Origin: Candidatus Velthaea sp. | GTDB lineage: Bacteria > Vulcanimicrobiota > Vulcanimicrobiia > Vulcanimicrobiales > Vulcanimicrobiaceae | Reading direction: 5' to 3' | Assembly: GCA_050012475.1 (NCBI GenBank) | Contig: JBEKHC010000033.1 | Span: 1 to 46,974 of the forward strand | Length of the DNA: 46,974 nucleotides | Part shown: piece after piece, positions 22,568-36,592 of the stretch | Position numbering within the stretch: position 1 is the first letter of the stretch | How the letters are laid out: every line of letters begins with the position of its first letter | Program-made: the position numbers and the translations under genes | The notes under the pieces: model-generated | The model's input: the letters and a program-made list of their open reading frames with translations, nothing else | Told to the model about the DNA's origin: nothing | The model's database searches: none

Positions 22568-23539
22568 ATGTCTAAAAAGGCAGCTATTTTTGCGTGCGCA
22601 GCGCTCGCGTTGACGGTGCCGATGTTCTCCGGGTCCGCGATGCCCGCGGCGCAAGCCGCCGCCAAGGGCGGTCTCATCACGATCATCGTCAACGATCCCT
22701 CGAATCCGTACTGGCTCACGGAAGGCAAAGTGGCGTCAGCCGAGGCGAAACGGCTTGGATATACCGCCATCGTCGGCGCCTCCAAAGGTGACACGAATAC
22801 CGAGAGCAACCTGATCGACACGGCGATCACCAACAAGTCGGTAGCGATCATTCTCGATCCGGCCGACGCGAGCGGTTCGATCGGCGCAGTGAAGAAGGCC
22901 ATCGCCGCCAAGATCCCTGTCTTGTGCGTCAATGCGGAGATCAATCAAGAAGGACTTGCAACGGCGCAACTCGTGTCGAACAATGCCCAGGGCGCGGCGC
23001 TTGGCGCGCAGCAGTGGGTCAAAGACGTCGGACAGAAGGGCAACTACGTCGAGTTGGTCGGCGCGCCGTCCGACAACAACGCCGCCACTCGTTCGAACGG
23101 GTACACGTCGGTTCTCAGCCAGATCCCCGATCTCAAGAAGGTCGACTCGCAGGTCGCGAACTGGAATCGTACCCAAGGCCACGATAAGATGCAAAGCATG
23201 CTGCAGGCGCATCCCGACATCATCGGTGTGATCAGCGGCAACGATGAGATGGCGCTCGGCGCGATCGCGGCGCTGAAGACGGCCGGGAAACTCTCCAGCG
23301 TCAAAGTGGGCGGTTTCGACGGATCGCCCGACGCCGTCGCGGCGATCAAAGCCGGCGACCTGCAGTACACGGTGCTTCAGCCGGTCGCTACGTTCTCCAA
23401 GAAGGCCGTCGACGAAGCGGACTCGTTCCTGAAAACCGGCAAGACGGGCGCAGCGCAAGAGAAGCAGCTGCTGGACTGCATCTTGATCACCAAAGCCAAC
23501 GTCGGAAAATTCACCGCGCCGTTCTCGCTCGGCCAGTAG
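22568..23539 (+). CDS. ABC substrate-binding protein (RbsB-like, probably erythritol-binding EryG type)
   Basis: Signal peptide; NPYW, ANWNR, NDEMALGA and GFDG motifs; AGGGAG RBS. Confidence 0.9.
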   Translation: MSKKAAIFACAALALTVPMFSGSAMPAAQAAAKGGLITIIVNDPSNPYWLTEGKVASAEAKRLGYTAIVGASKGDTNTESNLIDTAITNKSVAIILDPADASGSIGAVKKAIAAKIPVLCVNAEINQEGLATAQLVSNNAQGAALGAQQWVKDVGQKGNYVELVGAPSDNNAATRSNGYTSVLSQIPDLKKVDSQVANWNRTQGHDKMQSMLQAHPDIIGVISGNDEMALGAIAALKTAGKLSSVKVGGFDGSPDAVAAIKAGDLQYTVLQPVATFSKKAVDEADSFLKTGKTGAAQEKQLLDCILITKANVGKFTAPFSLGQ

Positions 23540-23560
23540 TCTCCGGAAGGTAACGGTAAT

Positions 23561-23592
23561 CGGAGAGCGCCCTGCGGGCGCTCTCCGTATTT
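23561..23592 (+). terminator. Intrinsic terminator-like hairpin
   Basis: Perfect 12-bp stem CGGAGAGCGCCC-tgc-GGGCGCTCTCCG followed by TATTT, about 20 nt after the SBP stop. Confidence 0.75.
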
Positions 23593-24018
23593 ACATCCGG
23601 TCGAATCGCCGCGTTTCAACCGCAGGACGAGATTGCCCCTTGCTTCGACCGCGTAGGCATTGCGCCTCATCGAGCAAACGCGTTTGCCCCGTACGTCGTG
23701 ACCTCGATTATCCAAGCGTTCCCTCGCTTCATCGAACGCCGCTCGTGTTGGCGGCACGGCGAGCCCGCTGCTGGTCACGCTGCATCGGGGATCGATGCGT
23801 AAGGGAACTTGGTCCTGGCCTGCTAGGTCGTCCGTCAACTCTGAAAAGTACGGCGCTGAACGATAATGTCGACACGCTCGGCATTCGCTCGACACGAAGA
23901 TCGGCGTTCCGGCAGCTCGCTTGAATGAAGACAACACCATTCGGCTTCGGTCGCTCGAAGGGCAGCGATGCCGGTATGAACGTCGGGTTCGTTCGCGGGC
24001 GGCTTTTCGGGAGGCAGC

Positions 24019-27000
24019 ATGCCGCTTCAAACACTCGCCGGTTCTAATTTGCACTACTATCTACTGTTGTTTGACGAGCTCGGCGTCGAACGACCGGAAC
24101 GCGACGGAACGCTGCCAAGCAAAGCCGTGACCGATCTCCTATTGCGGCGCGACAATCCTGTCACTGATGTATTCATCCTCAGCCACGGATGGATGGGCGA
24201 CGTTCCGGCTGCGATCGCGCAATACGACAGCTGGGTCGGTACGATGGCGAAGGTATCGGCCGATCTCGACCGCGCGCAACGCGAGCGGCCCGGATTCACG
24301 CCGCTCGTCGTCGGACTTCACTGGCCCAGTTTGCCGTGGGGCGACGAGGCGTTTGAGCCGGCAAGCGCCGTGCCAAAGGCGGGTTTACTGTCAGCCGCCG
24401 ATTCGCTGGAGCCGCACGTTGATGCGTATGCAAAGCGTATCTCGACAAGTGCAAATGCGCGTGCCGCAATTCAGCTTATTTTGGAAGCCGCGCGGAGCAA
24501 CCCGGATGTTACCGTTCTCCCCGCCGGCGTCACGGTAGCCTATCAAACGCTGTTTGCCGAAGCAGGCCTGAGTACCGGTGACGCCACCGGGCGTCCCGGC
24601 GCGGATCAAGATGGCTTCGATCCGCAAGCCATCGTCGCCGACGCCCTTCGCGACAGCCCGGAGGCCGGGACCGGCGGCAACGCGGGGTTATTAGGCTTGG
24701 GCAGCGTCCTCGAGGGCGCAATTCTCATGCCGCTGCGCCAGCTGTCGTTTTGGAAGATGAAAGACCGCGCGCGCGCGTTTGGCGAGACCGGCGGTCATGC
24801 GCTGCTCGGCGGGTGGCAGATCGCCGCTCCCGGCGTCCGTTTCCATCTCATGGGGCATAGCTTCGGCAGCATCGTCGTTTCGGCCGCGGTTGCCGGAGCG
24901 CCCGGCGGCCTCGCTCTGCCGCGAAAGGTCGATTCGCTTTTCCTCGTGCAAGGCGCGCTTTCGTTGTGGTCGTATGCGAGCGACATTCCGTACGCTGCGC
25001 AAAAGCCGGCGGCCGGATACTTCGAGCGGATCATTCGTTCCAAGCTCGTGAGCGGGCCGATCGTCACCACGCGGTCGGCGTTCGATAAGGCGGTTGGGCG
25101 CTTCTATCCGTTGGGTGCGCTGCTGCGTGACCAGTATCTGCTGGATGCTCGAGAGTTTCCGCTCTACGGCGGGATCGGCGCTTACGGCATTCAAGGCCGC
25201 GCAGACGTCATCGACATTCCGATCCAATCCGCGACGTTCAATTACGGTTTGGCCGCCGGCCACATCTACAACGTTGATGCGACGACCGTGATCAAACACG
25301 GCGACAGCCCGGCGGGCGCACATAGCGATATCGCGCATCCGGAAGTCGCGCACCTCTTCTGGTCCGCCGCGCTGACGCGTGCCGCCGGTGCGAAGCCTGA
25401 CCTCCTTTCGCCGCTCGACAACGGCGAACGCGGCGAGCGTTCCGGCGGATCCGGTGATGAGCTCTTTTTTGAGGCTGGGCCGATGCGCGGTCTCCTCGGC
25501 CCTGGCATCGATGCACTTCTTGAACGCGGCCCGGCCGGTCGCGACCTCGACGCGTCCAGTGCGCATTTGGTGCCCGAATCTGCATCGCCGCCTGCCGCTG
25601 CGGCACCCCCGCCGGCGCCCGTCGCCGGTGCGCCGGCCCCCGCTGCCGCAGCATCTTCGGAGAGCGAAGATGATACGCGGTTTCTCACCGCCGAGATCGA
25701 AGGCCGCAGCCCGAACGAACCGCTCGTCGCGCGTGAATCGTACAAACTGGTCTTCGACATTGACTGCAAGACGCGTCCCCGGACACTTGGAATCGGCGAG
25801 ATTCGCGCCAAAACGCTCTTCCCACCGGGCGCCGACGCGGTGACGCTCACCCTGCAACTCGACAGTGACGACTTCGAGATCGACGTGCCGACACGCATGC
25901 TCGTTTTGCCCCGTGAGCGCGTGTGTTCCGCGCCGGCTGAGTTCACGATCACCCCCAAGGCAAACGGGTCGTCGATGATCAAGGCCACGCTGCACAAAGA
26001 CGGTAACTTCGTAACGCGCCTATACCTCGTGTTCGATGTCGGCGCGAGTAAGCCGTCGATGCCGACATTGACGACCGTCGGGCGCGAACCGTCGGCGGCT
26101 CCGCTCCTGCACGGTCGTGACCTCAGCATTTCGCTCGAGCCCGCGCGGCACGGAATCGGCTATGACTGCACGATCTGGGGTCTGGTTCACGGGCATGCGC
26201 AGCTCAGCGTCTCTCCGGAGCTCCTGACGAGCGCCATCGGCACCGTCCGCGCCGCACTCATGCAAGTCATCATGACGCAGGATGCTGCGCTCAACCTCGT
26301 TTTTCAAAGCGGCTTCGAGATACCGCCGATGTACTGTGACGCCGCTCTGCGCCCGCTCGCAAAAGCCGGGCGGCGTTTGTTCCAACAGCTCTTCTACGGG
26401 CCTGGGGCAACCGCCGACTCGCTGACGGTCGGACAGTTCATCGAGGCGCTCTCAAAGGATCGCGACGCCCAGCTCAAGGTGCAGATCGTCGCCAAAGAGA
26501 CGCCGATTCCGTGGGGGCTGATGTATCTCGGTGACGCGAGCGACGGAGCGCAGTTGGATTGGTACAACTTCTTGGGCATGCGCCACATTATCGAACAGAT
26601 TCCATTTCAAAGCGGTTTGAAGGTCTATGACCCGCGCATCCGTAGCGATAACCCGACCCTGGGGGTCAGCCTCAATTTGAACGAGACAATCGATACGCAG
26701 ATGCGTTCCAACTTTGTCGGCGAGCAAAAGACGTTCTGGTCGGCCGTGGCATCATCGCGTGAACCGATCAACGTGATACGCCGGACGACAGCGAGCGATG
26801 TCCTCAACGCCCTCAGAGATCCGAAGGTTGCCGACAAGATTATGTATTTTTATTGTCACGCGCAGACCACCGGGCTTACGGCTGCAGGCGGCGCCGATAG
26901 CTCGGCGCTCGTCCTTTCAGACAAGGCGCTCATGCTCGGCGACCTCTACCTCGAGGCACCGACAGCGACCACGATGGGCGGCCAACCGCTGGTTTTCATC

Positions 27001-27339
27001 AACGCCTGCGAATCCGCCGCCCTCTCGGGAACTTTTTACGATGGCTTCGTTCCGTACTTCATGGCCAAGGGCGCCCGCGGCGTGGTGGGAACGGAGTGTC
27101 GCACTCCGGCCGCGTTTGCTACCGCGTGGGCTCGGCGTTTCTTCGAGAAATTTATCGACGGTGAGCCTTTAGGGCAGACGTTCCTGGACTTGCGGCGCGA
27201 GTTTCTCGACCAGCATCACAACCCGCTCGGTCTGTGCTACGCGGTCTACTGCGCCGGCGATACCCAGGTCGAACCGGCACTCGGGACGGTGTTGCAGCAG
27301 CGGGCGCCGACCGTCGCCTCAGCGCCGACGGTGCCCTAA
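24019..27339 (+). CDS. Alpha/beta-hydrolase - Pro/Ala linker - beta-rich domain - CHAT (caspase-like) protease fusion
   Basis: GGGAGG RBS; HGW oxyanion motif, GHSFG nucleophile (S281), GAHSDI (H435); CHAT motifs IPWGLMY, YFYCH (H947), FINACES (C997), GARGVVGTE, NPLGL.Y. Confidence 0.85.
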   Translation: MPLQTLAGSNLHYYLLLFDELGVERPERDGTLPSKAVTDLLLRRDNPVTDVFILSHGWMGDVPAAIAQYDSWVGTMAKVSADLDRAQRERPGFTPLVVGLHWPSLPWGDEAFEPASAVPKAGLLSAADSLEPHVDAYAKRISTSANARAAIQLILEAARSNPDVTVLPAGVTVAYQTLFAEAGLSTGDATGRPGADQDGFDPQAIVADALRDSPEAGTGGNAGLLGLGSVLEGAILMPLRQLSFWKMKDRARAFGETGGHALLGGWQIAAPGVRFHLMGHSFGSIVVSAAVAGAPGGLALPRKVDSLFLVQGALSLWSYASDIPYAAQKPAAGYFERIIRSKLVSGPIVTTRSAFDKAVGRFYPLGALLRDQYLLDAREFPLYGGIGAYGIQGRADVIDIPIQSATFNYGLAAGHIYNVDATTVIKHGDSPAGAHSDIAHPEVAHLFWSAALTRAAGAKPDLLSPLDNGERGERSGGSGDELFFEAGPMRGLLGPGIDALLERGPAGRDLDASSAHLVPESASPPAAAAPPPAPVAGAPAPAAAASSESEDDTRFLTAEIEGRSPNEPLVARESYKLVFDIDCKTRPRTLGIGEIRAKTLFPPGADAVTLTLQLDSDDFEIDVPTRMLVLPRERVCSAPAEFTITPKANGSSMIKATLHKDGNFVTRLYLVFDVGASKPSMPTLTTVGREPSAAPLLHGRDLSISLEPARHGIGYDCTIWGLVHGHAQLSVSPELLTSAIGTVRAALMQVIMTQDAALNLVFQSGFEIPPMYCDAALRPLAKAGRRLFQQLFYGPGATADSLTVGQFIEALSKDRDAQLKVQIVAKETPIPWGLMYLGDASDGAQLDWYNFLGMRHIIEQIPFQSGLKVYDPRIRSDNPTLGVSLNLNETIDTQMRSNFVGEQKTFWSAVASSREPINVIRRTTASDVLNALRDPKVADKIMYFYCHAQTTGLTAAGGADSSALVLSDKALMLGDLYLEAPTATTMGGQPLVFINACESAALSGTFYDGFVPYFMAKGARGVVGTECRTPAAFATAWARRFFEKFIDGEPLGQTFLDLRREFLDQHHNPLGLCYAVYCAGDTQVEPALGTVLQQRAPTVASAPTVP

Positions 27340-27638
27340 GCCGGTGCGGTTACCCGAGAAAAGCAGGCCGACGTCGCGAAGTGAATCGCACGCACCTCTG
27401 CGAAAACACGGCCCGACAAGCTGAATCGAAGTCTTGTGAACGGCTAAGACCGTTGGGGGTTCGGTCATCGCGAGCCTTCATTCGACGGGAGGCGATATGC
27501 TGAAAATACACGTTGCATCGCCAAGTTTCGGTGACGTTGCGGGGCAGCATTGCAATTTCGAGCGGGCGCGAGCGAGCGACACAGGGATTCGAAACGCGAT
27601 CGACCTGGAAAATGACGCGGTGCCGGGAACTTGCAGCG

Positions 27639-30470
27639 ATGCCTGATACCCCGATTTGGGTTGTTTGGGCGCGCAACTTCATCGCATGTGTCGAGCAGGG
27701 ACCAGGGGATGCTGCGAAGGCGCTGGACCGAGCGATCCAAACATGCGCTGATGCCGACGTGCAGGCGATCTTGCGCGATCCCAGACATTGGATGCCCGTT
27801 GGTCAGCGCTTGTTTAGCGCGGCGCGAACCTTGGAAGCAGGCACGGTGGAACTGCTGGGGTTGCGACCGGTGGCGAATCAAGTGGTTGCAGGGTGCTTCG
27901 AGCGCCTTGGTGCGCAGCAGCGGGTGCGCGCAGTCGAAGAGTGCAAACGCGCCATGGCGCTCAGCGCTGCGCTGCGGTTTCCCGAATGCGAAGCGTACTT
28001 CGCCGCCCTGCTCGGGTCGCGCGCAATAGGGGACAAGGACTACGTCTTGGCGACCTCTTTGCTTCAGCATGCTTTAACGCTCCGAAAGGATTTGACGCGT
28101 TCGAATCCGGCCGCTTACGAGTATCGGGTTGCCCAAACGCTCCGGGACCTTTCGACATGCCTGTCCGAACAAAAAGAGTTTCGAGCGGCCGCAGGATGTC
28201 TTGAGGATGCGCTCGCGATCTATCGCCGGCTGGCGGCGAAACAGCCGCACTACTACACTGCCTTGATTGCCGGGATATTGGTCAATCTAGGGATCGTTCG
28301 AAATGAAGGCTGGGAACTTACGGCTTCCCAGGAGGCTCTTGAAGAGGCCCTCGCATTGTACGCGAAACTGCCGCAACCGCAGGCTCTCGCGCATCGCGCG
28401 GATTTCGCGCAAGGGCTGGCCGAGATGTCGTCCACGCTGCGTGCTCTTCGCGATCTGCCGGCGGCGCGCGATTTCATCGAACGCGCGCTGGCTATCTATC
28501 GCGACCTTGCGCGCGCGGAGCCGTGGATGTACGCACCCGCCGTAGCGAGATGTTGCATGAGTTTCGGGGCCGTCCTCCGGGAACAGGGTGATCTCCGCGG
28601 CGCCGAAGCGGCGACGGTCGAGGCGCGGCAGACCTTCGAGTTGCTCGCTGCCCAACAGCCCGGTTTTGAAACGGAGCTGGCCTTCGTGCTTCGTCAATAT
28701 GGCGGGATTCTCGTGAACCAAAAGCGGGCGGCGGAGGCGCGAGAACCGCTCGAGCGTGCGGTGCTTTCGTTTCGGCGCCTCGCCGCGCTCCAACCGGCAG
28801 TCTTTCACTCCGAAGTCGCTGCTGCGCTTGATTGGCTGGGGCTGGCTCTCGAGGCTCTCTCCGATCTCCACGGCGCCGAACGAGCCCTGCAAGAAGCCGT
28901 CGACATCGGCCGCGAGTTCGCGTCGCGCGACGGTAGTCACAAACCAGCTCTCGGCCAGTATCTCAACAACTTAGCGGGTCTTTTGTGGACGCAAGGTAAC
29001 CAAACCGGTTGTGATGCGCTCACACGCGAAGCCGTTGAACTCGTTGAAAGCGATCCGGATCCGAGATCGCTCTGGTTATCCAAGGCCCATTCGCCGGGCG
29101 CGCATATCAATTGGCTCGCGCTCGTCAGTAAGTCCGCCGACGCCGATCGGGTTTTTCGCGCCTTGGCAGCGTTGCGCGAAGGCAGTGTACGCGCCCTCGG
29201 TCAAACGCGCCAGGAGAGCCTCGCATCAGCATGCGAATCGCTCGGGTGCGTCGATCAGCGTGCCGGCCGGCGGGTGTGCATTGTGGCCGCGCAGCAGCTC
29301 TGCAGCGCGCCAAACCAGGAGGAGAGCGTGTTGCTCGCCACCTTGGATGCGTCATCATTTCATTACCAAAATTCGTGGTCGTTCACGGCTGCGGCCGGCG
29401 CGCTCTTTGAGGAACTAGAGTCGGTTTTTCGCGAATCTCGCCCGAGTGGTACGCATTGGAAGGCGCGGATGGCGGAACTCGGCTCCGCCGCATGGGAGGC
29501 TCTACCGCAGACCGTTCGCGACATTCTTCATCCACACTCCAATATCGATGTCTTGATCAGTGGCGACTCGTACTGGACGGCGTTTCCGTGGGAGGCGCTG
29601 CGCTTCGGCCCAGGCGAAGACGACTATCTCGGGTGGTCACGACCTCTCACGCGCTGGAGCGCATTAACCGCTGCCGGAACGTCGGTCCTCGCGGCTACGC
29701 CATCGCGGGGCCCGGAGCGGAGCGTCGCCATTGTCTGTCCATGGGATGCGGACCCGCGTCAACTGCTCAAAGGATCTCGTGACGAAGCTCTCGCGCTTGC
29801 CCGCGATCTGCCGTTACGGGATTTTTCGCTCACGACCGGGGGGCCGATCCTTGGTGCCGGTGCAACGCAAGCTTCAATTAAAACCGCACTGAGCGCGCGA
29901 CCTGCATTCTTTCACTTTACTGGACACGGCGGTTTCGTCCGAGAAGAAGAGACGTTGCTTCTGCATGGCGGAACGTTTGGAAGCTCCCAGATCCGCGCCT
30001 TGCAGCAAGAGAAGGGTTGGGCAGACGGCGTGTTTGCTGGTGGCGCGCTCATTGTCTTGAACTGCTGTTTCACCGGCCGCACTCGAATGCACGGCGGCCA
30101 CCGGGAAGATCTGACCGGAGTGTTTCTCGAACAAGGTGCGCGCGGGGTGATAGCAAGTGCACTCCCCGTCTACGATCCCGTTGGTCAAGTGTTGGGCATG
30201 GCGATTTACGCCGTACCGGGCTCGACCGGCATCGGAGCGGTCGTGACCACAATAAGGAAGATGATCGGCACGCTTTCGGCAGCGGCCGAATCCCCGTTTT
30301 ACCCGACGTGGTCCATGATCCAGTACCACGGCGATCCGTGGCTCGCGATGCCTTCCGCACCGGCTTCGCTCGTCGGCGTCCCGATGCCCGGACTTATCGA
30401 AGCGGTAGCATCGTGGCTTAAAATTTCGCCCGAGCGCGCCGCAACAGCGATCGCAGAATTCATGCATTAG
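27639..30470 (+). CDS. TPR-repeat CHAT (caspase-like) protease; start uncertain (ORF open from 27513)
   Basis: About 7-8 long TPR-like repeats (ALAIYR.LA...P); FPWEAL, FHFTGHG, LNCC, GARGVIAS..PV.D and YHGDP CHAT motifs. Confidence 0.85.
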   Translation: MPDTPIWVVWARNFIACVEQGPGDAAKALDRAIQTCADADVQAILRDPRHWMPVGQRLFSAARTLEAGTVELLGLRPVANQVVAGCFERLGAQQRVRAVEECKRAMALSAALRFPECEAYFAALLGSRAIGDKDYVLATSLLQHALTLRKDLTRSNPAAYEYRVAQTLRDLSTCLSEQKEFRAAAGCLEDALAIYRRLAAKQPHYYTALIAGILVNLGIVRNEGWELTASQEALEEALALYAKLPQPQALAHRADFAQGLAEMSSTLRALRDLPAARDFIERALAIYRDLARAEPWMYAPAVARCCMSFGAVLREQGDLRGAEAATVEARQTFELLAAQQPGFETELAFVLRQYGGILVNQKRAAEAREPLERAVLSFRRLAALQPAVFHSEVAAALDWLGLALEALSDLHGAERALQEAVDIGREFASRDGSHKPALGQYLNNLAGLLWTQGNQTGCDALTREAVELVESDPDPRSLWLSKAHSPGAHINWLALVSKSADADRVFRALAALREGSVRALGQTRQESLASACESLGCVDQRAGRRVCIVAAQQLCSAPNQEESVLLATLDASSFHYQNSWSFTAAAGALFEELESVFRESRPSGTHWKARMAELGSAAWEALPQTVRDILHPHSNIDVLISGDSYWTAFPWEALRFGPGEDDYLGWSRPLTRWSALTAAGTSVLAATPSRGPERSVAIVCPWDADPRQLLKGSRDEALALARDLPLRDFSLTTGGPILGAGATQASIKTALSARPAFFHFTGHGGFVREEETLLLHGGTFGSSQIRALQQEKGWADGVFAGGALIVLNCCFTGRTRMHGGHREDLTGVFLEQGARGVIASALPVYDPVGQVLGMAIYAVPGSTGIGAVVTTIRKMIGTLSAAAESPFYPTWSMIQYHGDPWLAMPSAPASLVGVPMPGLIEAVASWLKISPERAATAIAEFMH

Positions 30471-30610
30471 CCAATCTTCGCGATTCGGATGTTCCCTGCG
30501 CTTGTGGGCGTCTTCAGTTTTCGGCGGAAATCGGCATTCGGGACCGTTCGAGAGGCTGGGCAGCTACAGCCAAAGGAGGCCGCCCGAAGCGTGCGAACGC
30601 CTTTTTTGCA

Positions 30611-32704
30611 ATGGCAAGCGCGGTGCGCCGAGTGAGCTTGTCTCGGCGCGAACACCAGATCGCCAAGCTTGTTGCTGCGGGCAAGAGAACCGCCGACATT
30701 GCCGAGCGGCTGCAGATCAGTGAACGAACGGTGGAAGCGCACTTGGCCGCTGCTTTCAATAAGCTCGGCATCAACTCGCGCGTCGAGCTGACGGCGCACG
30801 TTCTGCGCTCCGGCAAGGGGAAGGACGAAGGACGCTCTCGTCCCGGTAATCTCCCCGCTTTTCTCACGACGCTTTTTGGCCGCGGACGGGAGATCCAAGA
30901 GATTCTCGCGCTGGTCCAGTCGCGCCGGCTCGTGACGCTCGTGGGCGCGGGGGGTGTCGGAAAGACGCGCTGCGCGCTGCAGGTCGGTGCGAATGTGCTG
31001 GATGATTTCGCCGACGGCGTCTGGTACGCCGAACTCGCCACCGCGAGCGATCCGTCAGCGGTGCCGAATATCCTGGTTGCTGTCTTCGAGATCCAAGAAT
31101 CGTTGCAGCGCCCGATGCTCGACACCCTTGTCGCGCACCTCGAGAACAAGAATTTGCTGATCGTTCTCGACAACTGCGAGCACGTCGTCGCGGAGGCCTC
31201 GAAGGCCACGGCCGCGATTTTGCGGGCTGCGCCAAAGGTGAACATCCTCGCGACGAGCCGCGAGCCTCTCGGCGTGCGCGGCGAGGCCGTCTACCGGCTC
31301 CCGTCACTGTCGGTGCCGGCGACGCCCGACTTTAGCGCAGAAGATGCGCTTGCCCACGGTGCAATCGCCCTCTTTGACGCTCGGGCTCGCGCCGTCAACT
31401 CGCACTTTGCGATCACCGATGAGAACGCCCCAGTCGTCGCCGAAGTGTGCCGGCGGCTGGACGGCATACCGCTCGCCATCGAGCTTGCGGCGGCTCGCGT
31501 CAAGGTGATCACGCCAAAGCAACTTGCGCAGAAGCTCGGCGAACGCTTCCGGCTGCTCATTGGCGGCGACCGCAGCGTCGCCAACAGACCATGCGCGCCG
31601 CGATCGATTGGAGCTACAGTGACTACGAAAACATACCGCACCGCCCGTGGTTGGCGCTGGCGGAATCGGAGCAGGAGAATGTACGCGCCGCGCTCAGCTG
31701 GGCGTTTGCAACGGGCGGCGAGACCGCTACCGGTCAGCGGCTGGCCGCGACGCTCGGTCGCATCATGGTGCCTTTCGCGGCGGTCGAAGCTCGTCGTTGG
31801 ATCCAAGCCGCACAAGCGAAGGTCGATGCCGGAACACCACCCTCCGTGGTCGCGAATCTCTTTTTCGCCGAAGCTCGTGTGGCCGCAACCGTCATGCAAC
31901 CGAACCTGGCCCTCTTGGCTGCACAACGGGCCCTTGCCATATTCACGCAGCTGAACGACGATGCAGGGGCCGCTCGCGCGAAACGCTGGATCGGCCGCTC
32001 TTTGGTCTACTTGGGCCGACCCGCCGAAGCCATAGCATTCTTGGAAGAGGCATTGGCGACGCAGCGAGCGTTGGGCTCGCGCTTCTTGGGCGGACTGTTG
32101 CGGGACCTCGGCGCCGCCCGAGCCGCCGACGGCGACGTGGATAGCGCCCGCCTGCTCTTCGCCCAGGCGCTGGCGTCATTCAAGGACAGCGCCGACGATG
32201 ACAACGTCGTGGTCACCGCCAGTGCTCTCGCTGAGTCGGAATTTCAGCACGGCGCCGCTGCGGAGGCGTTGCGCTTCGCGGAGGAAGCGTTGACCTCAGC
32301 TCGTGAGCAGCATCATCATCGTCAGATGGTCGCCGGTTTACTGAGCAATACGGCCATGTACTGCGTGGCGCTTGGCCGCTACGAAGCTGCACGCGCGACC
32401 TGCAGACCGAAGTGATCGGCGCCGTCGCTATACAGCACCTAGCGGCGGTGGCCGCGTTGCGGCCGGGAAACGGCGCGCAGACGGAGTTCGCCGATCGCCT
32501 ACGTTCAGCGATGCTCATGGGTTTCGTCGACGCCCGGCTGGCCCAACTCGAATGCGCGTTCGCGATCACGGTGAGCAGAGGGAGTACGATATGGTGTTGC
32601 GCACGTTGCGCGAAACGCTCGGCGCCGAACGGCTCGAAACGTCGGTGGCCGAAGGTCTGCCGTGGACCCTCGATCAGGCGGTCCGCACAGCCCTCTCGAT
32701 CTGA
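30611..32704 (+). pseudogene. LuxR-HTH + STAND/NB-ARC ATPase + TPR regulator, disrupted
   Basis: LSRRE...ISERTVEAHL...KLG HTH; GAGGVGKT, LDNCEH, PLAIELAA; frameshift near 31578, missing winged-helix segment after IDWSY, further frame changes near 32410 and 32565. Confidence 0.8.
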
Positions 32705-32786
32705 CAGCGAGAACTCTTCGGACGTCCGCGCTCTGCGATGGCTGTGCGGCCGAGTACGCTATCGGTCTCACGTTCCAGCGGATCCG

Positions 32787-33119
32787 TCATGCCGACTTCG
32801 CTTGACGTGGCACAACAGCTTCCTGTGTGGCGCCTCGGTGCTTTCGTGCAAACACCACCAGTCCTAGTGCTACTGCTACGGTACTTAACGCCCCAGAGAT
32901 TTCAACCTGATCACGAAGATCAACTTTCCCTCCAGTACGCGCTGAACTCCCGTCATGCTGCGTCATGCCTGGAGCCATCGCTGACCCACCTTCTCCTGTG
33001 GAAATAGGATACTGGAGCGTGGCGCCGGCCGTAACCTGTGGCTGATCCGCTGCGGCGGGACCGATGGTCATCGCGAGATAGAGCATCATCGTGGCAGCTT
33101 TCATCTTCATATTACGCAC
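32787..33119 (-). CDS. Small exported protein with a C-terminal TM anchor
   Basis: AAGGAG RBS; signal peptide ending AAA; C-terminal hydrophobic helix followed by RKHR. Confidence 0.55.
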   Translation of the reverse strand: MRNMKMKAATMMLYLAMTIGPAAADQPQVTAGATLQYPISTGEGGSAMAPGMTQHDGSSARTGGKVDLRDQVEISGALSTVAVALGLVVFARKHRGATQEAVVPRQAKSA

Positions 33120-33404
33120 GCTCTCCTTCGGCAGGGTTCAGGTGGTGTCGACGTGTTCCGCGGCGCCGCATCGGCCGCGGCGGGTAAGGACAAAGCGAGT
33201 TTATCCTGCCGCGCTCGCCGACACATCCGGGTCACTACGTACGTACAAAATCGCTGGTAGTCGGAGATAGGGGGCATACACCGGCTTCTTCGCTAGGAAG
33301 CGGCAAGAAGCGGGGTTCCGGGTATCCGATCTCGATGTTGTTCGCGTCCGTTTCGCGCCGGTACCAGCCGCCGATGGCTCGCGACCGTCGTGCGTTTTAT
33401 AGCC

Positions 33405-33432
33405 GTTTGCGGTCAGATGTTTGCGGTCAGAT
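33405..33432. repeat. 14-bp tandem duplication abutting TTGACA
   Basis: GTTTGCGGTCAGAT twice, then TTGACA at 33434-33439. Confidence 0.8.
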
Positions 33433-33633
33433 GTTGACATTTCCCGGCTGCACTTTAGGTTGTTCTCGGCGCTCTTCGCGGCGCACCCAACTGGCACACC
33501 GGCCGGTAGTACTCTGAAGAAATGCGGCCGTACCATGCTCGGCGCTCATCGATTCGGTCAGGGCACGTAAGACAGTCTGCCAGCGCCGCTATCAACGCCA
33601 CCGACCTCCAGTGCTCGGTTTTCAGCGGCAATC

Positions 33634-33867
33634 TTGCACGTACTTTCGCCGCAAGACTCCGTGCGCGATCGACTGGCTCACTTCATCCACTGGAACGATC
33701 GAACCGCCCTGCGCGCGGCCGTGGGCGTCGCAGCAGGCCATCGAGATCGCATAGCGATGCCAGACATTGAGCGGTGGGCGCGGCGCGAAGAACCGCAGCT
33801 TGAGCACTTTCACGAGTTCGTCCTTGGATTCAACCAATTGAGGAGAGCGCGCGGGCCGCGGCGATGA
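33634..33867 (+). pseudogene. 3' remnant of a conserved hypothetical (putative nucleotidyltransferase-like) gene
   Basis: LSPQDSVRDRLAHFIHWND..AL..AV.VA...I....IERW motif recalled from that family; no 5' part or convincing start. Confidence 0.45.
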
Positions 33868-34880
33868 CCTTGCGAAGCTCTTCGGAACGTAAAGCACGAT
33901 CCTGACAACTCTCCGGTGTCCGACTAATCGCAGAAGCGTAGAACGGCGCTCTCCGTGCGCGGCGGCTTCTTTAATGCTCCTTGGCAAACTCGCCGCGCGC
34001 AAGCAACGGCCGAGCCCGCTAACGAGAAGGATGGGTTCAAGGAAATAATTCCGCGCCGGAGGCGCGTAACTCGCATCGGTCTACGACCGAAGCGAGTCAC
34101 GCACCGGAGCAAATATCAGCGGCATTTATGCAGTCCACTATGCGAACTTCTTCGTGTCGGTCGAAACGCGGAAGCGACATGTAAGGTATCGAGAGACAGA
34201 GTCTGTTGCAGCATGCAAAGCTCCAAGGAAACTCAAGCCTGGCAACCCTTGGTTCGCTCATTACCGCACCCAACTCAGACCTCGCAAGGCATGATCAGCG
34301 CTCAGAGATAGTACATGCGCCGGCTACAAATCGGTAACGTGGTGTCGCGATCATGGGCTCCATGGTTGGGACCCACCTTGGCCCGACGATCGGGCCCAAG
34401 AGACGCAGTTGCGCGGCCTGATCCGGCTCGGGCTAGCCGAAGCCTTGAACATTGCCGGCAAGCGGCGATATCGCGTCCTCCTAACGCCGGGCGGTTCCTA
34501 TTGGTCCGGTGGAATACTCGAGAGCCTTTTGGGCTCTGACGATGAAGATGGCTCGTGATACTTCGAAGATCGGTTGCGCGCTCATTGCGCTCGGCATCGC
34601 CGGAGCGACCGTCGCGCGAGCGGACATCCTTGATGAAGAAGACTTCCCTAGCCTCGCGTGACCCTGCCTATAAGGGGCGAGCTTTCGAGTACGTTGGACG
34701 AAGGGGCGTAGCTAAGCAAATTTGAGAGATCCAGGGATTCCCGAAGAGCCTCGCGCGTTCGTCGCTCAATCTTTTCAAGGCGCAGTTCCGCCACAACTTC
34801 GTCGAACAGGCGCCCAAATCGCGCTTCCATCGATTTGTGGTCGATCTTGAGGTTTGCTCCACCCTCCAGGCCCGTTTGGA

Positions 34881-35579
34881 TCACGGCCGAGCGTACGTCA
34901 TGGTCCACACGCCTCGGTCGCCTGGACGGTACTCATAGCCGTCCCACGGGGAACCGCAAATATGCGTCCCGGCGAACATCACCAACGTTCCCGCGTCCCG
35001 CATAACGGTCGGTAGGCCGGCCTCTTTCGCATCGAACGGCCACAGGAGCATCCAGTGCGGCCCGATCGGTATCGGCGGACTCGTCCGATCGAACGGATCG
35101 GTGTAGCTGTGCTGAACTGCGCCATTGAGCATGTAGATCAGCCCGGGCACGGTGTTCGACGGCTTCGGCTTCCTGGCCATAACGTCCATCATCCACTGCA
35201 AGCCGGCGGGATCCGCGCACATGTCCGCCGCTCCGATGATGTTCTCGTTGCCCGGGATGCACACCCAACGGTTTGTACCGGGGCGCAGTACCGTCAATTG
35301 TCCCTGACTATCTATGTCCGCGACGGTCGCGTCCTTCGTTACGCTGTCGGGACCCGAGAGTAGAGCACGCCGGATCTTCGCTTGTATCACCATGCTGTTT
35401 TCGTCCACAATCCTATCCTCCATAAGACCGTCGTTTGATGCGTCCGCAGCGTCGTTTGGAGAAGCGCTGGCCAATGCCCGCGCCACGGACATTTTCGCGG
35501 TTACGCTGACGCCTGCAAGCGCGATCGCGTTGACGAACACTCGGCGCGATATCGACGGTCGGCCGTTCGCGTCAGTCAT
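34881..35579 (-). CDS. Tat-exported hypothetical protein
   Basis: SRRVF twin-arginine motif and hydrophobic region; LRPGTN.WVC.PG, MC.D, GLIYML.G and PHWM motifs. Confidence 0.7.
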   Translation of the reverse strand: MTDANGRPSISRRVFVNAIALAGVSVTAKMSVARALASASPNDAADASNDGLMEDRIVDENSMVIQAKIRRALLSGPDSVTKDATVADIDSQGQLTVLRPGTNRWVCIPGNENIIGAADMCADPAGLQWMMDVMARKPKPSNTVPGLIYMLNGAVQHSYTDPFDRTSPPIPIGPHWMLLWPFDAKEAGLPTVMRDAGTLVMFAGTHICGSPWDGYEYRPGDRGVWTMTYARP

Positions 35580-36026
35580 CTGGTTCGCTGCTCGAGGTGT
35601 CTTCCAGGATTTGTGCCTCGATGCTCTGGAGATCGAGCACGCGCGTGAACCGTCGCTGCACCGTGTTTATCGATCTTGCCTGCGCGGCGGAGCTCATCGA
35701 GGCAGCATCGCTGCGCTTCGACGGAGAGCGTCGATAATATGGTGGAAGCCGATACCGACTTCGACGAATACGAACGCATTGACCAAGAAGATGACGACCA
35801 CCCAGAATCCGAACAGCAGTTGGCGCGAGTTGGGTGCGAGAACGATGGGCGTGTAGCGGCTGAGCACGACGCCGGCCGTCACCGTTGCGAGCACGCCAGA
35901 GAATCCGAAGCGGTACGCGGGCAGGTAGGCGAGAAACGGAATGCATACGGAAATCACCGCTTGCGATGCATCGTCGCGGATGTACTTGAACGCCGCGACC
36001 GCGACCGCTGCGACGACGAGCACGCC
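35572..36026 (-). pseudogene. Fragments of a CPA1 Na+/H+ antiporter
   Basis: PFLAYLPA...G.SGVLATV.AG...W....F..N...F...G membrane segment; tail EAQR..L..LRRAG.I....RR....LDL split across frames. Confidence 0.65.
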
Positions 36027-36592
36027 GTCGGGCCTCCCTGCGATTACGCGTGCGCCTTCACCGAGCCGCGCTGATGTCGCGAAGGGCGGCCGAGGATCCA
36101 CGACGACGATGCGAAGGTCGAGAACATCGCCAATTGCCGTGACCTCGCGGGTGACCGACGTTGCGCCGATCACGATGACGGGCGCTTCCGCGGAATGGTC
36201 AGATGAGTGAGAGGATTCGTCGGGATCTGCAGATCGACGTCCTCGTCGCCGGCTGCGATCATCGCCGCGGCCGGCCCGAACGATGATCTCGGGACCCAAA
36301 CTGCGACACGGAGGTTCACCCGGCAGCCGGTGCCGCCTTCGATCGCGTCATCCGAACCAGTGACGACGACCTCGCGGCCGACGCCGTTGCCGATCGTTCG
36401 CTGGCATGATTCGACGATTTCGGCTTCATAGCAGCCCGCACCGATATCGCCGGAGACGGTCCCGTCGCGGTCCACGATAAGAGACGTCCCGAGGGGCGCG
36501 AAGCCAGGCCGGGAGCACTCGATCAGCGTGGCGGCGGCGAACATCCGGTTCTCCCACAGCCACTCCTTGATGGTGTCGAATTCCGCGCGCAT
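36027..36592 (-). pseudogene. XdhC/CoxF molybdoenzyme maturation factor, frameshifted and truncated
   Basis: ATLI...G.AP.G, G.IGAGC.E, G.GC; after a frameshift near 36185 VIG....VVVDPRP.FAT; C-terminus absent. Confidence 0.75.

Follow-up and report, generated by a model that had tools for sequence, protein, structure and literature searches.

A hydrolase-CHAT protein of Candidatus Velthaea, apparently a widespread relative of protease-triggered bacterial suicide enzymes

Two genes for caspase-like CHAT proteases lie side by side on contig JBEKHC010000033.1 of Candidatus Velthaea sp. (assembly GCA_050012475.1), and the question they raise is whether they form a working pair or whether one of them is complete in itself. 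The window that we analysed is the whole stretch of 46,974 nucleotides. The first gene, P1 (24019..27339, plus strand; 1106 amino acids, aa), encodes an alpha/beta-hydrolase, a disordered linker, a beta-sandwich and a CHAT protease, and the second, P2 (27513..30470, plus strand; 985 aa), encodes a solenoid of tetratricopeptide repeats (TPR) ahead of a CHAT domain. We find that the conserved unit is an alpha/beta-hydrolase with its own P1-type CHAT, fused or in adjacent genes, in several phyla. The reading we prefer, with a probability of about 0.55, is that P1 is a self-contained protease-effector module whose CHAT-cut hydrolase zymogen would act as a toxic conflict effector, and that P2 lies beside it by chance or as an exchangeable neighbour.

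Both reading frames are co-oriented and uninterrupted, and the motifs that a preliminary description of this DNA had named in them are all present. In P1 the hydrolase domain (aa 1-453; 24019..25377, plus strand like all features of P1 and P2 given here) has HGW at 56-58, GHSFG at 279 with the nucleophile S281, an inferred and probable acid at D356, and GAHSD at 433 with H435. The separase/Csx29-like CHAT protease (26089..27282), identified by Foldseek and by a Pfam CHAT match that exceeds the family cut-off (E 1.6e-8), has YCH at 945 with H947 (26857-26859) and NAC at 995 with C997 (27007-27009). When P1 was aligned with 67 of the 120 matches listed, H56-G57-W58, S281, D356, H435, H947 and C997 were invariant in 68/68 rows; the catalytic residues of the hydrolase are also invariant in 20/20 rows of the hydrolase profile alignment. 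The structure model of P1 has a mean predicted local distance difference test score (pLDDT) of 80, and its CHAT domain compares well with separase (Z 22.9, root mean square deviation (rmsd) 4.5, 317 aligned) and Csx29 (Z 22.1, rmsd 3.8, 302 aligned), while for the N-terminal domain a range of Ser hydrolases score similarly (Z 11-13.5), none standing out. Between the two enzymes lie a hypervariable Pro/Ala linker (25378..25674; pLDDT below 50 at 456-548) and an all-beta sandwich (aa 553-690; 25675..26088), visible as strands in the model, which has no named family and only unnamed look-alikes in the Atlas. A complex prediction for the P1 CHAT (690-1090) and the P1 hydrolase (1-455) scored 0.00, which is evidence neither way.

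Relatives of P1 of similar length number at least 300. We confirmed 567 genome stretches, and the best 80 gave 64 loci, which come from Pseudomonadota, Gemmatimonadota, Actinomycetota and Acidobacteriota. Hydrolase and CHAT are fused in 36 of these loci, form a frameshifted fusion in 5, are split with the CHAT gene first in 19, and are truncated or otherwise arranged in 4, the class of L020 and L066 being our reading of their rows. Split P1-type CHATs can carry an N-terminal Trypco2/Pepco (L022) or SEFIR-STAND (L024); L024 matches a PADLOC model for a type I-E-linked STAND, and such a STAND is also mentioned in the accessible text of PMC12642450, whose Fig. 4A could include P1-type loci. Viral contigs gave 34 pattern matches for P1 relatives, of which none was confirmed. 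In L044 (175-3798) a DUF7379-DUF7363-CHAT protein of similar layout lies upstream of a P1 relative, and only its CHAT part aligns with P1.

The hydrolase itself is named by no curated family in PADLOC, NCBIfam and Pfam scans. Matches to DUF900 and Abhydrolase_8 were partial and below the cut-offs (2 and 6 of the 20 rows; best E 0.0024-0.0027), and a sequence search of the PDB with the hydrolase profile gave a single match at E 0.31. Its look-alike clusters in the Atlas are labelled 'serine-threonine protein kinase' or hypothetical, with DUF900 annotated on 14% of the members of one of them. By profile search the family comprises 3,895 clusters at E<=1e-3 and 1,231 at E<=1e-30, counted as 50% identity clusters.

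Within otherwise variable segments of P1 one motif recurs, small/x-[LV]-L↓[G/S/D], where the arrow marks the predicted cut. At candidate site 1, G-L-L124↓S (24382..24393), L124 is kept in 68/68 rows and [LV]L[GS] is found in 54/68 against a shuffle mean of 4.5. Candidate site 2, G-L-L225↓G (24685..24696), keeps its Leu in 68/68 and the motif in 64/68 (shuffle mean 4.8), and candidate site 3, Y-L-L375↓D with consensus V-L↓G (25135..25146), keeps them in 68/68 and 46/68 (4.8). Candidate site 4 in the linker, G-L-L493↓G (25489-25500), keeps L493 in 63/68 and the motif in 56/68 (6.4). Shuffle maxima for the four regions were 10-13, and two control regions showed [LV]L[GS] in just 3/68 and 4/68. 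The four sites fall in the four internal segments of the model with pLDDT below 50, at 108-127, 214-228, 369-378 and the linker segment. Sites 1 and 2, in disordered loops, bracket a helical insert of 101 residues (aa 125-225; 24391..24693; model helices 131-216), which by analogy to LcHydrolase (PMC12642450, see below) is predicted to be a gating or inhibitory fragment. The conserved hydrolase-CHAT linkage and these candidate sites together support the suggestion of the preliminary description that a protease activates the hydrolase, within a conflict or defence type of setting.

The motif residue changes with the class of the partner protease. We ran the 20-row hydrolase profile against 351, 401, 301 and 251 genomes of four phyla, obtaining matches in 17, 2, 12 and 18, and by neighbour classification the partners of these hydrolase relatives are subtilase S8 or C25-type proteases, with none at some loci. 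Among 96 full-length hydrolases compared, the CHAT clade has the Leu motif at sites 1, 2 and 3 in 54, 56 and 51 of 57 rows. The C25-linked hydrolases (n=4) have it at none of the three and a Phe motif in 3, 4 and 3, and the S8-linked hydrolases have the Leu motif in 2, 1 and 0 of 17 parsable rows (26 in total), with Gly/Ala runs instead. In a separate profile search, by our own count, hydrolases fused to the P1-type CHAT region showed Leu at 7/7, 6/7 and 7/7; of 11 C25-fused ones 9 could be parsed, and these showed Phe at 7/9, 9/9 and 7/7.

A second member of the hydrolase family is encoded in the same genome (G000:C125; L099:6580-9203, minus strand), directly downstream of a subtilase S8 gene, and has GGAA-type motifs in place of Leu; in the phylum of the host, hydrolases of this family usually occur in such an S8 pair. 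Several C25- or trypsin-containing hydrolase fusions also bear a non-specific endonuclease or PLD. Five polyproteins (P0162, P0179, P0186, P0189 and P0243) combine a C25-type protease and the gated hydrolase with a non-specific endonuclease, trypsin or PLD domain, and are candidate self-processing multi-effector toxins.

Our reading of P1 as a self-contained module is built on its domains, its intact catalytic residues, the hydrolase-CHAT linkage, the motifs that lie in disordered loops, and the way the motif varies with protease class; from these we infer the cutting of the motifs, the protease that cuts them, the substrate, the toxicity, the trigger and the defence role. The N-terminal alpha/beta-hydrolase would be made as a zymogen, and the P1 CHAT would cleave after Leu in x[LV]L↓[G/S/D], either in cis or between P1 molecules. 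Cuts at L124 and L225 would remove the 101-aa insert, a cut at L375 would open a second loop, and a cut at L493 would free the hydrolase from the protease. The released Ser-Asp-His hydrolase would attack an ester, probably lipid, substrate, and by arresting or killing the cell could serve as a conflict or anti-phage effector.

Several observations weigh against this reading. P1 has no recognisable sensor and matches no PADLOC model, and many P1 loci, for example in Bradyrhizobium and Caldimonas, lie amid housekeeping-like genes without a second CHAT. Sites 1 and 2 are missing from one CHAT-linked relative, L011. With 5 label changes in all, each partner class amounts to little more than a single clade, so that the covariation reflects about 2-3 independent switches, and the 57 CHAT labels were given by origin (the P1-search loci except L069, plus the window), with some of the contigs truncated. 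A loose Phe pattern also matches 16/57 CHAT-clade rows at site 1, 9/26 subtilase rows could not be parsed, and the subtilase-type motif is weak, being low-complexity Gly/Ala. A five-member actinobacterial hydrolase clade (L107, L110, L113-L115; L160-L163) retains the insert and has no protease within 1.5 kb; none was found in the 12-13 kb scanned around L107 and L114, or in the scanned stretch of L125. The actinobacterial genes lie in a housekeeping region, adjoining a gene for a penicillin amidase or an erythromycin-esterase-like protein.

Protease-gated effectors of comparable design have been described. Kaur et al. 2020 (PMC7159879), in the text accessible to us, first noted the pairing, the caspase domains of VMAP systems always having an alpha/beta-hydrolase neighbour. 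According to the available part of the Evans et al. 2025 preprint (PMC12642450), LcHydrolase is cleaved by LcCaspase after R73 and R117, yielding fragments that kill E. coli; LcHydrolase has 296 aa with a 4.7-kDa middle piece, a separate caspase of 594 aa, and 161 homologues. P1 likewise has an alpha/beta-hydrolase with an intact triad, genetically tied to a caspase-superfamily cysteine protease. Its two candidate sites around the insert would match the two LcHydrolase sites, which enclose an internal piece before the lid region and prefer Gly at the P1' position, an equivalence of sites that is our reading of the motif order in Table S1, without an alignment. P1 differs in having a hydrolase of 453 aa, an insert of 101 aa, two further sites and a fused PF12770 CHAT. 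P1 lacks the R↓G motifs of LcHydrolase, its insert being flanked by L124 and L225 (68/68), and the motifs, compared by eye, read HGR, HSLG and TLGSP in LcHydrolase versus HGW, HSFG and QGA in P1. Cleavage and toxicity were demonstrated for LcHydrolase, whereas for P1 they are predictions. A degenerate pattern for LcHydrolase-like proteins had no match in the loci collected here or the genome. On the best reading of this analogy, the P1 module would resemble the LcHydrolase/LcCaspase death module but represent another family, protease class and cut code.

Other comparisons likewise draw on the accessible portions of their sources. Tuck et al. 2025 (PMC12799240) describe gated pairs of a metallo-beta-lactamase (MBL) nuclease and a protease, together with Canu, in which the proenzyme has inhibitory insertions; these proenzymes have changed partners among trypsin-, caspase- and further protease classes, and the site residue varies by partner. 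The effector there is an MBL-fold DNase on a separate gene, as against the Ser hydrolase of P1. In the Runella gasdermin-CHAT system (10.1101/2021.06.07.447441) the CHAT cuts after L247 in a flexible loop with Gly at P1', as predicted for P1, but its effector is a pore former. No MoxR ATPase, vWA or VMAP, the components of the Kaur 2020 ternary systems, was matched by Pfam in the 38 window open reading frames (ORFs) or in 66 selected neighbours from P1 loci. The statement of the preliminary description that no gasdermin or CRISPR component is present holds for these 38 scanned ORFs, in which we found no gasdermin and no match to Cas7-11, Csx30, any cas or SAVED (the rest of the genome was not searched). 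Neither P1 nor P2 is named by PADLOC or NCBIfam. A literature search, with most subscription papers outside its reach, turned up no paper in its listings on the hydrolase-CHAT fusion or a Leu/Phe-gated family; the family is absent from the accessible text of 10.64898/2026.10.19.760177, PMC13069673 and PMC8195603, and six P1-family accessions are missing from the readable supplements of both PMC7159879 and PMC12642450. P1 is apparently a widespread, undescribed relative of protease-triggered bacterial suicide enzymes.

P2 has its own intact protease. It comprises a TPR solenoid (27912-29177) and a CHAT domain (29271-30347; Pfam CHAT above cut-off, E 1.8e-13), with TGH at 803 giving H805 (29925-29927) and LNCC at 849 giving the conserved C852 (30066-30068), both kept in 12/12 aligned rows. 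TPR matches and about 8-9 helical hairpins in the model bear out the eight or so repeats counted earlier; a PDC-S39 match is weak and covers the TPR stretch only, and a caspase match is sub-threshold. Like Csx29, the TPR-CHAT of type III-E CRISPR, P2 combines TPR and CHAT with a His-Cys dyad and has the fold of Csx29 and separase, but its structural identity to Csx29 is 10-13%. The true start is probably M43 (27639), because pLDDT stays under 50 across residues 1-43 and M43 is where most relatives begin, which puts about 300 bp between the two genes. In P2 the pattern [LV]L[GSD] has four matches, each in at most 6/12 rows and none inside a segment with pLDDT below 50, so P2 is unlike a P1 substrate. 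The P2 family is small, with 11 relatives. Its loci comprise 10 from metagenomes, several of them short, with L079/L080 and L073/L074 near-duplicates, and their surroundings are defence-island-like yet variable. A P2-family gene lies near BrxL and an Avs4-like match in L076 (1-6528), near a TIR gene and a recombinase in L078 (1-4329), and near a trypsin-TPR gene in L077 (5731-8991).

The preliminary description made P2 a fixed sensor-partner of P1, and the neighbourhood survey speaks against such a fixed pair, which we reject. A P2 profile run over the 64 P1 loci gave weak CHAT-domain matches only and no P2-family gene (0/64), and a P1 profile run over the 10 P2-family loci, in 6 of which the upstream gene is visible, gave none (0/10). 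P2 as the dedicated activator of P1 is probably wrong. A looser arrangement, which we regard as possible but unlikely, is a two-step cascade in which the P2 solenoid senses a trigger and the P2 CHAT makes a first cut that activates the P1 CHAT, which processes the hydrolase, P2 filling an exchangeable initiator slot. Such a slot stays conceivable because a second, non-P1 CHAT lies within the fetched flanks of 29/63 P1-family loci, and of 22/38 with at least 5 kb on each side, where our arithmetic, which takes 2-7 CHAT matches in a genome of 5-10 Mb, puts chance at about 0.4-2.3%, for loci that are not independent of each other. About eight lineages are represented among these second CHATs, all outside P2's clade, and most of the proteins retain His/Cys; helical-repeat CHATs are co-oriented beside P1 relatives in L015, L019 and L028, with truncated L019-like genes in L009 and L012. 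P1 and P2 are moreover the sole two CHAT matches in the 5.36-Mb genome, a cascade would supply the sensor that P1 lacks, and two adjacent caspase-like proteases have a precedent in the SAVED-CHAT to PCaspase cascade, as far as the available text of 10.1101/2023.06.23.546230 goes, but the pair here is not conserved. Besides the missing co-occurrence, the cascade is opposed by the 16/38 well-flanked P1 loci without a second CHAT, by the 10 P2-family loci, in which none was found, by the intergenic distance, by a GC content at third codon positions (GC3) of 0.73 in P1 versus 0.66 in P2, and by the equal expectation that CHAT genes cluster in defence islands. Run X1 may be the source sample, and one of its contigs covers the P1-P2 junction (26398-28046); another X1 contig matches from 27457 on after at least 255 unrelated bases, as if the region upstream of P2 also existed in another context, a weak point against the cascade from a single contig. 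The commonest second CHAT is a protein of about 1000 aa with an unnamed N-terminal domain, a CHAT and a TPR-S, found at 11 loci and, in Gemmatimonadota and Burkholderiaceae, directly downstream of P1 relatives (e.g. L016:9991-12840, L023:11621-14743). A broader version, which we hold to be equally doubtful, makes the P1 CHAT a Leu-specific executioner acting on several co-encoded zymogens (its own hydrolase, lysozyme-like proteins and Pepco partners) and switched on by exchangeable upstream sensor-CHATs including P2. If true, it would amount to an initiator-executioner caspase cascade independent of CRISPR, in which the cut-site code of the hydrolase (Leu, Phe, Gly/Ala) is rewritten at each change of protease class.

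The neighbours of P1 relatives bear on two further explanations. A lysozyme-like gene, with weak Pfam matches below cut-off, lies upstream of P1 relatives in Burkholderiaceae, and TPGLL occurs near the N-terminus in 8/9 of its products; in a second, unnamed neighbour family xLL/VL[D/E/G] occurs near the N-terminus in 10/10 members, all but one of these motif-bearing neighbours being in Burkholderiaceae. The lysozyme-like gene would suit the same zymogen-protease chemistry put to a use other than phage defence (interbacterial antagonism, regulated lysis, or the release of contractile particles or wall-degrading enzymes), as would four loci (L008, L039, L062 and L064) with phage tail sheath/tube-like, contractile-system-like genes 2-6 kb away from the P1 relative, and the astacin-like neighbours at others. 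Set against it are the recurring TIR, SEFIR-STAND, SIR2, nSTAND1, WD40 and Pepco contexts (TIR, SIR2, nSTAND1, WD40, transposase and tail-sheath genes are among the 66 neighbours, which were hand-picked and are no census), the patchiness of the locus among close kin, and the P1 model, which starts straight with the hydrolase fold and shows no N-terminal extension (no signal-peptide predictor was run); we consider this use improbable. Least probable to us is that the Leu motifs are uncut structural or docking elements, such as a lid or membrane anchors, and that P1 is an ordinary esterase whose fused CHAT acts on other substrates. Binding alone can conserve hydrophobic pairs in flexible loops, and some relatives retain the insert with no protease nearby. 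Against this, one and the same motif stands at four positions that are unrelated to each other, one of them in a hypervariable linker, as well as in neighbour proteins of no relation, and a change of partner protease is accompanied by a joint switch from Leu to Phe at three sites.

Among 41 related genomes, only this one has a full-length P1 or P2; in the P2 tally, the match in the unpublished G036 was scored as TPR-only. Three congeners keep the upstream sugar-ABC genes at 72-94% identity across matched stretches, and each congener carries different genes at the position of P1 and P2; on these grounds the block appears to be a recent strain- or species-level acquisition. The P1-P2 intergenic DNA is not repeated elsewhere in the genome, promoter/terminator and repeat scans of the locus stayed at chance level, and no array-like repeats were found in 23400-35000. 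That many neighbours are broken is true downstream and not of the upstream sugar-ABC genes, which are whole. A regulator with LuxR-HTH, STAND-like ATPase and TPR parts (30611..32415, plus strand), which we treat as a neighbour only, changes frame near 31580 and is thereby split in two; contigs of both run X1 and run X2 read through this point gap-free, and from its sequence and family this gene has apparently suffered an internal loss. An xdhC-like sequence (35694-36592) is in two pieces and overlaps a Na+/H+ exchanger fragment. The contig starts with genes for a NiFe hydrogenase large subunit, NifU/Rieske and DUF5947 (16-2400).

If the motifs are cut sites, they would give residue-level specificity predictions for orphan CHAT, C25-type and subtilase proteases, and protease-gated hydrolase effectors would reach past the single Arg-cut example. 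P1 would then be a one-gene system in which to seek the substrate of such hydrolases, and with a subtilase-paired member in the same genome, two protease classes could therefore be compared within one organism.

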